Shown piece after piece: positions 14,770 to 22,579 of a DNA stretch of 26,727 nucleotides; the first letter of the stretch is position 1; every line of letters starts with the position of its first letter. The stretch lies in IMG/VR virus record IMGVR_UViG_2675903433_000037, one strand, 5' to 3'. The notes below the pieces were generated by a model, which saw only the letters and a list, made by a program, of their open reading frames with translations, ran no database searches and had not been told where the DNA came from. Both the position numbers and the translations under genes were made by a program. The stretch is from a virus. Taxonomy: Duplodnaviria > Heunggongvirae > Uroviricota > Caudoviricetes.

Positions 14770-14939
14770 AACTAAGCCGCCTCGTTGAAGCGACTAAGGT
14801 ATGAAATGTTGAGTTGATTTCAGCTGGTCACACCGACGTTCACGCGTCCGTTTCATCCCTCGCACTCCCCGAAGCCTGCTGAAATTCAAGCTGCGGATCT
14901 AAGCGGTCATCGCAACGGTGAATCAGGTGATTGCCGTAT

Positions 14940-15060
14940 CGTTGTGTTGTTGCGATGAACTCATTTAAAACTATAGTTGTTTTATCGTCAACAACAAAAG
15001 TTGTTTTGTTGGTTGTTTTAGATATAACTGGTTGTATTTAAGATGGATTTATTTTGTGAC
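14940..15060 (-). promoter_or_regulatory. Putative OL/PL operator-promoter region
   Basis: AT-rich tract with repeated gttgtt / aacaac half-sites, for example 'aaaactatagttgtttt', related to the inverted repeat in the cI-cro intergenic region. Confidence 0.4.
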
Positions 15061-15120
15061 TTGCATCGCATAGCGATAACTGAAGCGAGGTCGTGGTGGT
15101 TTTTTTGAACGGTGTATGAT

Positions 15121-15151
15121 GAGGGGAGGGCAAAAGAAAACCCGGCACGGT
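15121..15151 (-). terminator. Rho-independent terminator ending the cI operon (tIMM-like)
   Basis: Hairpin cccggc-acggtg-gccggg flanked by aaaagaaaa on the plus strand, giving a U-run on the minus-strand RNA. Confidence 0.65.
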
Positions 15152-15235
15152 GGCCGGGTTTAGATGATTGGTTAAGAGCGAGGGTAATGGGGAATGAAAA
15201 ATCGCTTTACCTAATGCAAGGGTGCGAGCATTTTC

Positions 15236-15679
15236 TTAAGCACTAAAGAAAAAGTACATTGATAGCTTATAAAGTCCTGTTCCTGCAGCGATGATTGCTG
15301 GAACACCAAGCAATACCGCAAGCTTTGCGTCTGAAATCTTTCTATCGACAGCATCACTTGATGGCTTGTTTGTTAAGGATTCTTTTATAGAGTCCAGACG
15401 TGCAAGAATAGTTATCATATTTTTGTCGATAGCTTTAACGTCTGTTTTAAGTTCATCAACGTCTCGTTTGATATGAGCAACATCGGACTCCAGTTTTGCA
15501 ACTTTTTCAGGCATGTTATCACTCCCAGACCCACTGCTACCACTTGATTGTAGCATGTCCCATCTTTTTCCAGATATACCTGCTAGCTGGGAAGACGCAC
15601 TGGAGTGCAAACAAAATGATTCTGCCGCCTTTGCAATTTTATCATTTAGGTTTGGAGCTTCGTAATAATCGTGTTTCAT
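15236..15679 (-). CDS. Coiled-coil protein with C-terminal membrane anchor, 147 aa (rex-position gene 2)
   Basis: Ser/Gly-rich linker, heptad-like 'VAKLESDVAHIKRDVDELKTDVKAIDKNMITILARLDSIKESL', hydrophobic tail 'LAVLLGVPAIIAAGTGLYKL'. Starts 12 nt after the upstream stop. Confidence 0.6.
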   Translation of the reverse strand: MKHDYYEAPNLNDKIAKAAESFCLHSSASSQLAGISGKRWDMLQSSGSSGSGSDNMPEKVAKLESDVAHIKRDVDELKTDVKAIDKNMITILARLDSIKESLTNKPSSDAVDRKISDAKLAVLLGVPAIIAAGTGLYKLSMYFFFSA

Positions 15680-15691
15680 AATTAATTACGA

Positions 15692-15955
15692 TTAGTTTGT
15701 TTTAGCTTTGTCATGCTGGTCGCGAATGAAGTCAGCCAATTTAAGCATCAATTCTTCGGGCATTCTAATGGTTGCAATGTTGTACTTTATGTTCTCAACA
15801 TCGTCACTTTCATCAACAGGCCATTCAGTTACATTATGAAAAAAAGAAATTGAACCTAGGCGCTGAGAGCCGTCACCAAACGAAGAGTAGCCAAACGCGT
15901 CGGCGTATGCATCGACACAGTTATTTGATTTTTTAACAAGTGTTTTATTACTCAT
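15692..15955 (-). CDS. Hypothetical 87-aa protein with C-terminal RHH-like motif (rex-position gene 1)
   Basis: ATG with a gggaaagg RBS directly downstream of cI. C-terminal 'IATIRMPEELMLKLADFIRDQ' resembles a ribbon-helix-helix strand-helix. Confidence 0.55.
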   Translation of the reverse strand: MSNKTLVKKSNNCVDAYADAFGYSSFGDGSQRLGSISFFHNVTEWPVDESDDVENIKYNIATIRMPEELMLKLADFIRDQHDKAKTN

Positions 15956-16036
15956 TTTTGCCTTTCCCGTAATGTTATTTTTTATAAGGTATTTTCTTCA
16001 GCGTATTACCCAAAAGCCTCATCAACACGCGGCTGA

Positions 16037-16726
16037 TTATCCGTGTTTTCTGTACGTCTGCGGCATGCTCCCAATAACCTTACCGAATATGAATACCCGG
16101 TTCATCTCGTCTTTCTCGATAGGGTCCCACGGTGAGTAGCTCTTGTTATCAGAGATAACCAGCAGTTTATCCTTCATCATTTGCAGGCGCTTTACATGGG
16201 CGGTGTCGTCGTACAGAAATGCATAGATACCATCACCGTCGAAAGATTTAACCGTGATATCAACGAACAGCAGATCACCTGGTTCGATCGTTCCTGACAT
16301 GCTGTCACCACGCACGTTAATGATGCGGATATTTTCTGCCTTCCTACCATCGAACATGTGACGAGCATCGTCAAACGAGTACTCAACCGAGCGTAGAACT
16401 TCTACAAACTCACGGTTGATGACTCCCGGCCCAGCACTGACTTCTATATCAAGAACGTCAATCTTGAAGTATTTGGAATGGCTGACAGTTGATTGTATTG
16501 GTTGCACTGTACTGTCTGACATATTTCCAACGCCAGAAGATAACCATTCTGCGCGCACACCCAAAGCGTTCGCGATCTCCACGATTTTAGTTGTTTGATT
16601 AGCTTTCCCTGTTTCGATTTTCTGAATAGCAGCCTGGCTAACCCCGACCAAATCCCCAAGCGCCTTTTGTGTAAGGCCTCGCGCTAATCTGGCTTCTTTA
16701 AGTCTTTCTGAGAGTGTTGTTTTCAT
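16037..16726 (-). CDS. cI-type prophage repressor (N-terminal HTH plus S24 peptidase domain), 229 aa
   Basis: HTH 'LTQKALGDLVGVSQAAIQKIETG' and S24 signature 'VRGDSMSGTIEPGDLLFV' with a downstream Lys in 'HVKRLQ'. Start chosen at MKTTL; the track's upstream ATG at 16792 lies inside the operator. Confidence 0.85.
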   Translation of the reverse strand: MKTTLSERLKEARLARGLTQKALGDLVGVSQAAIQKIETGKANQTTKIVEIANALGVRAEWLSSGVGNMSDSTVQPIQSTVSHSKYFKIDVLDIEVSAGPGVINREFVEVLRSVEYSFDDARHMFDGRKAENIRIINVRGDSMSGTIEPGDLLFVDITVKSFDGDGIYAFLYDDTAHVKRLQMMKDKLLVISDNKSYSPWDPIEKDEMNRVFIFGKVIGSMPQTYRKHG

Positions 16727-16830
16727 AGTCCAAATGTACAACCAAGGTTTTATTCCATCAAACGAAAATGGTTGTTGACTAAAAACAACCATAGTTTTAA
16801 TCTTGATTCAAATTAACCACGGAGGTTGTT
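16727..16830. promoter_or_regulatory. Divergent PRM/PR-type promoter-operator region
   Basis: 104-bp spacer between the divergent cI-like and cro-like genes. Inverted repeat atggttgtt-N9-aacaaccat at about 16768-16795; the cro-like gene has a ggagg RBS. Confidence 0.6.
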
Positions 16831-17061
16831 ATGAACCCAGCTATCAAAACAGCGATCAATATCGTTGGTTCACAAAAGAAACTGGGCGCTGCCTGCGAAG
16901 TTTCACAGCAGGCCGTCTATAAGTGGCTTCACAACAAAGCAAAGGTATCCCCTGAACATGTCGGCAGCATTGTTACGGCTACTGGTGGAGTAGTGAAGGC
17001 ATACCAGATTCGCCCGGATCTTCCGAAGTTGTTTCCACACACCGAAAAGAACGCAGCTTAA
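16831..17061 (+). CDS. Cro/YdaS-like HTH regulator, 76 aa
   Basis: Small HTH protein ('AACEVSQQAVYKWL') transcribed divergently from the repressor. Confidence 0.75.
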   Translation: MNPAIKTAINIVGSQKKLGAACEVSQQAVYKWLHNKAKVSPEHVGSIVTATGGVVKAYQIRPDLPKLFPHTEKNAA

Positions 17062-17130: not shown

Positions 17131-17670
17131 ATGCAACCACTTCCATACCAACAGACTAGCGGATTTAGCCCGACTGCGGTGATAAATCGTTCTCAAACAA
17201 AACAGGTGCCAGGCCACGAAAAAATCCGTGATGCCGTCCGCGCCTGGTCGGCTGTAGATAATCAGGATGTCGTTGCCACACTCATTGTGAATGAGTATCG
17301 GGAGCAGGGCGGCGGCACCATCGATTTCCCTGATGATGTCAGCCGTACACGCCAGAAGCTGTTCCGCTTCCTCGATAACAAATTCGATTCTGAAAAATAC
17401 CGAAATAACGTGCGTGAACTGACCCCGGCAATTCTGGCGGTACTACCGCTGGAATATCGCGGTTACCTGGTTGAGCAGGATAGCTTCATGGCTAGGTTGG
17501 CTGAAATGGAAAAGGAACTCAGTGAGGCAAAACAGGCTGTCATTCTCAACGCACCACGCCACCAGAAACTGAAGGAAATTAGTGAAGGTATTGTGTCGAT
17601 GTTTCGTGTGGACCCAGAGCTGGCTGGTCCATTGATGGCGATGGTTACTACCATGCTGGGGGCGATATGA
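17131..17670 (+). CDS. YdaT-like protein at the cII position, 179 aa
   Basis: 'EYREQGGGT' and 'LTPAILAVLPLEYRGYL' resemble recalled Rac-prophage YdaT; aaggag RBS. Confidence 0.55.
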   Translation: MQPLPYQQTSGFSPTAVINRSQTKQVPGHEKIRDAVRAWSAVDNQDVVATLIVNEYREQGGGTIDFPDDVSRTRQKLFRFLDNKFDSEKYRNNVRELTPAILAVLPLEYRGYLVEQDSFMARLAEMEKELSEAKQAVILNAPRHQKLKEISEGIVSMFRVDPELAGPLMAMVTTMLGAI

Positions 17671-20444: not shown

Positions 20445-20504
20445 CTGTGCGTTGCCGCAAAATCGGCACACGGGATTGGCGTCCCGGACATCAAAACGAC
20501 GCAT

Positions 20505-20527
20505 AACCGCGTTCGCGGTTTTTTTAT
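20505..20527 (+). terminator. Intrinsic terminator in the leader upstream of the Bro-N gene
   Basis: aaccgcg-tt-cgcggtt hairpin followed by ttttttt, about 60 nt downstream of the predicted promoter. Confidence 0.55.
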
Positions 20528-20688
20528 GCGCAGTGCACGTCTACACAAAAATTATGGTGGGCTGTGTGAGGGCTTCTTCGGAAGCGCCGGATTTCGTTTT
20601 GACCGGTTACGCCAACCTTGCACAGTCCACCACCAGTCGATTGGCGTCGTCGGTGGTGATAGCTCAAATTCAAAACGAGATTATCGCT

Positions 20689-21596: not shown

Positions 21597-22013
21597 ATGA
21601 ATAAAAACGACCTTGAAGCATTATCTGACACTAGGCTTAATGAGGCCAAATGCTTGCTTGATCATGGCTTTTTTCATGGTGCATATTATCTTTGTGGGTA
21701 TGCAGTTGAATGTGCATTGAAGGCCTGTATTGCCAAGTCATTTTTACAACATGAGTTTCCAAACAAAAAAGTCGTAAATGATTCATATACTCATGATTTG
21801 TCGCAACTTCTCAAAATTGCCAACTTACATCAAATTTTGATTGCTGACGCAAAAAATGATGTTTCGTTGGAGATTAACTGGTCGGTCGTTAAAGACTGGA
21901 GCGAGCAATTTAGATACGACAATAACATAAGTAAAGCTATGGCCGAACAATTGTTTGATGCTGTAGGTGACCAAAATTCTGGAGTTTTGAAATGGGTAAA
22001 AGCACACTGGTAA
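21597..22013 (+). CDS. HEPN-like domain protein, 138 aa
   Basis: 'AYYLCGYAVECALKACIAK', 'YTHDLSQLLKIA' and 'EQFRYDNN' resemble the PF05168-type HEPN helical signature. AT-rich gene. Confidence 0.6.
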   Translation: MNKNDLEALSDTRLNEAKCLLDHGFFHGAYYLCGYAVECALKACIAKSFLQHEFPNKKVVNDSYTHDLSQLLKIANLHQILIADAKNDVSLEINWSVVKDWSEQFRYDNNISKAMAEQLFDAVGDQNSGVLKWVKAHW

Positions 22014-22393
22014 TCGGCAGAGAGTTGACAAAAGATATGGAATTCTCAGGTCAATTTTTGTTAAAAAAACTCAAGTTACAGAATTTAACTATTGATGCTG
22101 CAATGTGGTTTTATTACCCAGATCTATCTTGGAGATATATTTTAGTTATCAGTGACTTCTCAGAACGTGGGCCGGCAGAAATATATAGAAAAATCAGTGA
22201 GATAAATAGAAATAGCATATCAAAAAAGTATAAGCCGATACCATTAGAAGCAATTGAGGCTAAGGGGGATTCAGCTTTTGTTTATAAAATGTTAAAAGGA
22301 TTTGCTAGAGTCAACGATGGTAAAGTTCGCGTTTCTAATTCTATGGTAAATGGTTTAGAAATCGTTGACTGTCTGATCTATGAGTTAAAATAA
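21992..22393 (+). CDS. Hypothetical 133-aa protein overlapping the HEPN-like gene by 22 nt
   Basis: ATG with a ggag RBS 7 nt upstream, inside the 3' end of the HEPN-like ORF. No nucleotidyltransferase motif seen. Confidence 0.5.
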   Translation: MGKSTLVIGRELTKDMEFSGQFLLKKLKLQNLTIDAAMWFYYPDLSWRYILVISDFSERGPAEIYRKISEINRNSISKKYKPIPLEAIEAKGDSAFVYKMLKGFARVNDGKVRVSNSMVNGLEIVDCLIYELK

Positions 22394-22486
22394 GAAATCT
22401 CTTGCTGGGTATCATTATTGTTTAAATGACTTTTGATTTTCAATAATCAACTTGTCATAATTAAGTCACCGGAGTTTGAACTCCTC

Positions 22487-22579
22487 CGGTGACTTCTGCG
22501 CTAAACGGGGACGTTTATGCGCACATACAATCTAAACTATCTTCTCCCGTCACAGATGCAGAAATGCACCTGCGATTTT
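22487..22579 (+). repeat. Direct repeat R2 (93 bp)
   Basis: Second copy of R1, preceded by a perfect 9-bp-stem hairpin (tcaccggag...ctccggtga). Confidence 0.8.

Follow-up and report, generated by a model that had tools for sequence, protein, structure and literature searches.

The window analysed here, by which the whole stretch is meant, comprises 26,727 nucleotides (nt) of the IMG/VR virus record IMGVR_UViG_2675903433_000037 (Caudoviricetes), and the element in question is a pair of genes between the prophage repressor gene and the leftward operators, encoding a small soluble protein of 87 amino acids (aa) and a membrane protein of 147 aa. The region was found to be 100% identical to a lambdoid prophage adjoining tRNA-Arg in Escherichia coli O26:H11 str. 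11368, and the 100%-identical prophage region is also present in many other enterohaemorrhagic E. coli (EHEC) genomes. The pair is one member of a widespread and unnamed family of two-gene cassettes carried by temperate phages of Enterobacterales, and we consider it a candidate exclusion system.

On the minus strand the order is cI-type repressor, 87-aa gene, 147-aa gene, terminator, leftward operators (OL) and promoter (PL), kil, gam, bet and exo. The repressor open reading frame (ORF; 16037..16792, minus strand) contains HTH_3 and Peptidase_S24 domains according to Pfam and is therefore of the cI/LexA type; its true start is likely to be Met23 at 16726, the start chosen by the Prokaryotic Genome Annotation Pipeline (PGAP), which gives a protein of 229 aa as in RefSeq. 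The repressor stop is followed by a spacer of 81 nt (15956..16036), by the gene for the 87-aa protein, hereafter the partner (15692..15955, minus strand; phrog_4231), and, starting 12 nt past the partner stop, by the gene for the 147-aa membrane protein (15236..15679, minus strand; phrog_3556). Both genes are also present in the RefSeq annotation of E. coli O26:H11 11368, where their products (WP_000066829 and WP_012565042, respectively) are termed hypothetical. A scan of the minus strand of the spacer for terminators and promoters returned no terminator and no sigma-70 consensus, and the pair is therefore expected to be read through from the repressor promoter, which would make it co-transcribed with the repressor and hence expressed in the lysogen.

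The pair ends at an intrinsic terminator equivalent to tIMM (15128..15161, minus strand), with a stem at 15161..15138 of 9 pairs, six of them G-C, followed by a T-run (fold z-score -3.25). The terminator piece of 62 nt at 15100-15161 constitutes the downstream edge of what we will refer to as the cargo slot. Beyond it lie two OL operators of the AACAAC-N4-GTTGTT type (14966-14981 and 14990-15005, minus strand), the latter a perfect palindrome, and overlapping them a candidate PL, which was read from the sequence and was not called by the promoter scan (-35 TTGACG at 14991..14986, a 17-nt spacer and -10 TTAAAT at 14968..14963, minus strand); this promoter would be directed leftward, to kil-gam-bet-exo. 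An earlier annotation made from the letters of the window, here called the sequence-only reading, had described two genes of 87 and 147 aa directly downstream of a cI-like repressor gene on the same strand, ending at a strong hairpin and T-run terminator just before OL/PL, and this layout was borne out in all its parts by the ORFs and RefSeq genes, the repressor domains, the terminator fold and the operators at 14966-15005.

Both ORFs are real genes, given their purifying selection and their membership in PHROG families: the partner matched phrog_4231 at 7e-54 and the membrane protein matched phrog_3556 at 1.5e-58, both families with no function assigned in PHROG. Compared with two closer copies, the ratio of nonsynonymous to synonymous substitution rates (dN/dS) was 0.05-0.24 over the whole of each gene, and for diverged copies the values were 0.05-0.09 (partner gene) and 0.09-0.13 (membrane protein, residues 56-147). 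The exceptions were the N-terminal residues 1-55 of the membrane protein (0.36-0.59) and the membrane gene compared with that of Salmonella phage UPF_BP1 (dN/dS 0.41), where the C-terminal part has been exchanged.

The membrane protein consists of an adaptor (residues 1-26), a Ser/Gly linker (27-55), a coiled coil (56-103), a KPSS hinge and a transmembrane (TM) helix at about residues 118-136. The model obtained with AlphaFold2 showed a helix at residues 10-26, disorder at 27-55, a single long helix at 56-103, a break at KPSS and a further helix at 108-146. In the coiled-coil segment (15371..15514, minus strand) all 14 of 14 heptad a/d positions are hydrophobic, and the best 19-residue hydropathy window (1.80) coincided with residues 118-136, the small-residue-rich segment AKLAVLLGVPAIIAAGTGL (15272..15328, minus strand). 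Since this is the only TM-grade segment and 11 residues follow it, the protein is predicted to be tail-anchored in the inner membrane and to lie almost entirely in the cytoplasm. In a profile search of the PDB the partner had no match, and the matches of the membrane protein were confined to coiled coils that are either designed or of the Lpp type.

The partner has no TM segment by hydropathy scan, and a structural model of it (predicted local distance difference test score, pLDDT, 78) consists of a three-stranded antiparallel sheet followed by a single C-terminal helix. The linker, coiled coil and C-terminal TM tail had been proposed in the sequence-only reading and agree with the model, the heptads and the hydropathy; the ribbon-helix-helix-like motif it had assigned to the C-terminus of the partner was ruled out, as no Pfam match was found even at E<=1 and the modelled fold is not beta-alpha-alpha. 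The partner family is tiny: it comprises 10 clusters at 90% identity, and an exhaustive hidden Markov model search of 1.84 billion representatives yielded 8 clusters at 50% identity.

In contrast to the features just described, three aspects had not been anticipated by the earlier annotation: a large family with swappable partners, a P22 mnt setting and a conserved internal start. The coiled-coil/KKPS/TM domain of the membrane protein was detected by profile search in 288 protein clusters, from Escherichia, Salmonella, Klebsiella, Citrobacter, Enterobacter and Cronobacter as well as Serratia, Pantoea, Erwinia, Rahnella, Tatumella and others, and a Pfam domain was present in none of the 120 clusters listed out of the 288 found. 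The part that is constant in the family is made up of a heptad coiled coil, predicted to be cytoplasmic, followed by a KKPS hinge and, at the C-terminus, a single TM helix rich in small residues; this shared domain begins at the position of Met56 in the window protein, and the 25-80 residues N-terminal to it vary among members. All elements of the family were found in the window module, namely the partner, adaptor, Gly/Ser linker, internal Shine-Dalgarno (SD) sequence with start codon, coiled coil, hinge and TM helix, with a repressor gene upstream.

The gene directly upstream of the membrane gene always encodes a small soluble protein, of one of three types, none of which has a significant match in Pfam or PADLOC. 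The first type (87-98 aa, phrog_4231) occurs in E. coli, Salmonella and Serratia marcescens, the second (136-153 aa, divergent) in Klebsiella, Pantoea, Serratia fonticola, Citrobacter and Salmonella, and the third (93 aa, phrog_12039) in Rahnella, Citrobacter, Cronobacter, phage HK544 and the Shiga toxin (Stx) phage VT1-Sakai, which is an Stx1 phage. The architecture is kept despite unrelated sequences, for example in a Serratia cassette of 98 aa plus 207 aa. The N-terminal adaptor of the membrane protein was found to track the type of the partner and not the type of the coiled-coil/TM part. Between the window and UPF_BP1 the identity is 95% for the partner, 56% for the adaptor and 33% for the coiled-coil/TM part, and between HK544 gp40 and the Citrobacter protein P0136 the first approximately 80 residues are nearly identical while the C-terminal part is diverged or unalignable. 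This co-variation suggests that partner and adaptor work together, and the partner probably binds the adaptor.

One E. coli protein of 134 aa (P0005) joins the N-terminal 57 residues of a partner to a coiled-coil/TM tail of the UPF_BP1 type (compare L001:3724-4461). It was considered as a functional fusion of the Rosetta-stone kind and this was rejected, as it is better explained by a deletion between the DVENIK-coding repeats that both genes of the UPF_BP1-type cassette contain.

At the boundary between the variable and the constant part an internal translation start was observed (15512..15526, minus strand), with an SD sequence GGGAG (15526..15522) located 7 nt before the ATG of Met56 (15514..15512). 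An SD sequence and a start codon at the first coiled-coil residue were present in 13/13 family genes examined (12 ATG and one GTG); the SD sequence is formed by the last codons of the Gly/Ser linker and lies a few nt before the start codon. The calculated hybridization of the internal SD sequences to the anti-SD sequence was -6.8 to -12.1 kcal/mol, compared to a background of -1.9 +/- 2.5 kcal/mol, and 3-6% of random windows matched this strength. No SD sequence was found at the annotated start of the long form of the 147-aa gene, either in the sequence or in the anti-SD hybridization check. Gene callers often choose the internal start, and many family entries are accordingly 90-93 aa in length. 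Given the conservation of the internal SD sequence and start codon, we propose that a short form of 92 aa (15236..15514, minus strand), consisting of the coiled coil and TM helix only, is probably made alongside the 147-aa form and nested in its frame. Nested in-frame starts are likewise annotated for P22 sieB/esc and for the holin/antiholin pair made from the two starts of gene 13, with which the cassette would share this property; homology to SieB was rejected (BLASTP E = 27).

In 13 of the 15 lineages examined, a lysogeny repressor gene directly precedes the cassette on the same strand. The repressor is of the cI or RacR type in lambdoid and Rac-like prophages (the window and loci L010-12, L020/21, L029-39, L040 and L043-48), and it is Mnt in the immI region of P22-like prophages (L001, L007/8, L019 and L022-25), where the cassette lies between mnt and the ejection gene 16, the interval that in P22 holds orf59a and sieA. 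In one P22-like prophage (L022) the stop codon of mnt overlaps the start codon of the partner gene (ATGA).

The replacement can be seen most directly in HK544, a phage with lambda immunity. Its cro-OR-cI segment is 99.1% identical to that of lambda up to 35 nt beyond the cI stop, and the similarity sets in again (97.6% identity) with the final 2 nt of rexB and extends across tIMM/OL/PL. The place of rexA-rexB between these flanks is taken by 934 bp with the genes for gp41 (93 aa) and gp40 (183 aa), and gp40 is homologous to the 147-aa protein of the window (BLASTP 3e-10; phrog_3556 at 1.2e-26). Thus, in HK544 a cassette of this family replaces rexA-rexB exactly, and rexAB and the cassette are directly comparable in one immunity-region background using lambda and HK544.

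The content of the slot also varied among prophages that share a repressor. Behind the identical repressor WP_000858975 the slot was empty (L027), held a gene for a 337-aa protein of no recognized function (L026) or held a module variant of 81.6% identity (L028), and the terminator after it was the same across the prophages with this repressor, including the empty one. Among sequenced phages whose immunity region is identical or nearly so, the slot was empty in PhiR34_1, contained the PADLOC candidate PDC-M11A/B in IdasGreatGrand (2e-133 and 7e-52) and contained the PADLOC candidate PDC-M63A/B in PhiR30_1 (4e-42 and 8e-36). The view of the rex position as a site for cargo, already put forward in the sequence-only reading, is upheld by this variation behind one repressor and by the exchange in HK544. 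The 337-aa protein (L026:3989-5002, E. coli SK1402) had no match in PADLOC and is a further candidate cargo of the slot. Of 5426 complete E. coli genomes, 1784 contain the 62-nt terminator piece at 87-98% identity, whereas the module was found in 198 of the 5426 (approximately 3.6%), far fewer than have the terminator piece, which could serve as an anchor for the mining of cargo downstream of prophage repressors. In four Citrobacter loci (L033-L036) a third gene follows the cassette (126 aa, L033:4474-4854; phrog_3135), with a weak match to a PHROG of the superinfection exclusion protein Cor (8.2e-06) that covers only the N-terminal approximately 60 residues; from this match, genes of exclusion type appear to stack in the slot.

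Neither protein had a match in NCBIfam, Pfam or PADLOC beyond coiled-coil noise. Against the 5027 models of PADLOC-DB v2 the partner gave no match and the membrane protein gave coiled-coil noise only (E>=0.004); among the alternative partners, six had no PADLOC match and the 93-aa type had a marginal match to Nhi (E 6e-4, 16.5 bits). Literature searches with locus tags and gene names (ECO26_0579/0580, ECs2991/2992 and HK544 gp40/41), accessions and keywords returned no study of these genes or of the family. The earlier statements that the system is undescribed and that its proteins resemble neither RexA nor RexB therefore stand, and profile searches (Pfam, NCBIfam, PADLOC and PDB) revealed no confident homology to a non-defence function, the match to XhlA discussed below being sub-threshold. 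Judged by its sequences, the cassette is a new protein-family pair that would fill a known functional niche, the RexAB position. Like RexAB, it lies between cI and tIMM and combines one soluble and one membrane protein. RexA has a length of 279 aa and RexB spans the membrane four times, whereas the cassette has an 87-aa partner and a membrane protein whose long coiled coil precedes a single TM helix, and in these same database searches its proteins show no similarity to RexA or RexB. PDC-M11 and PDC-M63 share with the cassette the cI-to-terminator slot in the same or a near-identical immunity region, whereas their proteins (ASCH-domain and DUF6932) are unrelated to it. The gp30/31 pairs of mycobacteriophages Sbash and Butters are reportedly lysogen-expressed prophage defences that consist of a cytoplasmic and a membrane protein; they belong to other hosts and have no detectable homology to the cassette.

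Based on location and architecture, an anti-phage function of the cassette is likely. We favour the interpretation that it is a prophage-encoded exclusion system with an abortive logic resembling that of RexAB, to which we assign a probability of roughly 40%, because the cassette has a lysogen-type placement at a site used by RexAB, SieA and candidate defence genes and joins a constant membrane portion to a variable one that is suggestive of recognition. The adaptor of the long isoform would serve as the docking site of the partner, which would be the subunit that confers specificity or acts as a sensor, and the long and short isoforms would co-assemble via the coiled coil and the TM helix. 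Upon infection by a heterologous phage the partner might sense a phage product, whereupon the assembly would damage or depolarize the inner membrane and the infection would be aborted. The fullest version of this proposal, a modular immunity of three products in which an exchangeable adaptor and sensor trigger a membrane lesion through a mixed oligomer of long and short forms, as a natural functional substitute for RexAB in phages of lambda immunity and for SieA in P22-like ones, present also in Stx phages of EHEC, is tentative and as a whole somewhat doubtful.

Several observations weigh against an exclusion system of this kind. In the PADLOC scans no homology to any validated defence protein was found, and PDC-M11 and PDC-M63, which occupy the same slot elsewhere, are themselves only candidates. 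The cassettes of Pantoea (L003-L006) and Rahnella (L013) do not lie beside a recognizable repressor. The model of the membrane protein is of low overall confidence (pLDDT 63), the hydrophobicity of its TM segment (1.80) is moderate, its N-terminal residues 1-55 are under relaxed constraint (dN/dS 0.36-0.59), and a Gly-rich linker could yield an SD-like string by accident. Furthermore, the evidence separates abortive infection neither from a block of phage entry nor from a role outside defence.

The main rival is superinfection exclusion by a block of genome entry at the inner membrane in the manner of SieA, in which the ejection or translocation machinery would be hindered and the cell left unharmed. 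The cassette of P22-like prophages occupies the slot between mnt and gene 16 where P22 has sieA, it does so in P22-like phages without sieA, and sieA is present in only 22/66 P22-like phages (PMC10883804). Both systems would place a protein in the inner membrane and, as predicted for the cassette, both are expressed from the prophage; constitutive expression alongside the repressor would suit a passive block. However, SieA spans the membrane several times and contains a conserved cytoplasmic FxRYPxEAxxFNK motif (PMC10883804), and that motif is absent from the 147-aa sequence, which has one TM helix. SieA is moreover a single gene with its own promoter, whereas the cassette has two genes and is translationally coupled to mnt. 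With nearly all of the protein predicted to be cytoplasmic and at most 11 residues past the TM helix, little of it would face the periplasm, and the cassette is also found in long-tailed lambdoid and Rac-like prophages. We regard an entry block as unlikely.

A lysogen function outside defence would take the form of an addiction module resembling a toxin-antitoxin (TA) system, or of a lysogenic-conversion factor that alters the physiology of the host membrane or ribosomes, in the way of ElaB and YqjD, which are tail-anchored host proteins. The order of the genes, a small upstream gene and a tightly spaced downstream membrane gene (12-nt gap), is typical of TA systems and compatible with a type II pair, the tail-anchored coiled-coil build resembles that of host stress proteins, and neither protein showed defence homology in PADLOC. 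Nevertheless, neither DUF883 nor any family of toxins or antitoxins was matched in Pfam, three unrelated partner types with matching adaptors fit a diversity of recognition better than they fit an antidote, and the slot elsewhere holds defence candidates and, in lambda, RexAB; we consider this explanation quite unlikely. That the membrane protein is an accessory of lysis, a holin partner related to XhlA (PF10779; phrog_1193, phrog_937) which adjoins the repressor by chance, is highly improbable. It has the same overall shape as XhlA, with a C-terminal TM helix after a coiled coil, it has weak matches to 'hemolysin' PHROGs (phrog_1193, 1.4e-4; phrog_937, 1.2e-3), and one UniRef member of the family is named 'Hemolysin XhlA'. 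Yet the Pfam match is far below the family threshold (12.1 bits compared to a cut-off of 34.7, E 0.23), the XhlA profile reached E<=0.1 in only 4/25 family members, and the prophage has a separate lysis cassette with essD, rrrD and rzpD approximately 11 kb away. The position in the repressor operon, not in a lysis cassette, implies expression during lysogeny, a stage at which a lysis protein would be out of place.

If the favoured reading of an anti-phage function is correct, the cassette would represent a compact new defence family of approximately 230-280 aa in total, with members in numerous temperate phages of E. coli, Salmonella, Klebsiella, Citrobacter, Serratia and Cronobacter, including VT1-Sakai. 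A constant membrane module combined with a swappable adaptor and partner, and perhaps with nested isoforms, would make it a tractable model for the coupling of an effector to specificity, and the cargo between repressor and terminator, behind cI or behind mnt, constitutes a hotspot that can be mined.

With regard to other features of the prophage, a cluster of rightward operators (OR) with AACAAC-N4-GTTGTT-like sites (16761..16830) was found between the repressor gene and a YdaS/Cro-like gene (16831..17061, plus strand; ORF list and RefSeq annotation), and a YdaT-domain protein occupies the position of cII (17131-17670, plus strand). The YdaT-domain protein and the YdaS/Cro-like gene together indicate an immunity region of the CP-933P/Rac type and not of the lambda cII type. 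The ORF list contained no N-like antiterminator gene between PL and kil; the interval has only a 31-aa ORF (14794..14889) with an Arg-rich KRTRERR segment. A put- or nut-like structured RNA in the PL leader (14770-14940, minus strand) was rejected, as the fold was no better than that of shuffled sequences (z = -1.17) and no Rfam match was obtained.

At 20453-20637 on the plus strand, Rfam matches to isrK (64 bits) and to the C4 antisense RNA (82.5 bits) lie side by side just upstream of an antirepressor-like gene with a P22AR C-terminal domain, which points to a second, antisense-controlled antirepressor circuit in the style of P1/P7. In the nin region (about 21597-22490, plus strand; 21498-22294 in L002), a HEPN-domain protein annotated by RefSeq is followed by an overlapping gene for a 133-aa hypothetical protein, and the two may form a toxin-antitoxin or defence pair of the HEPN type.

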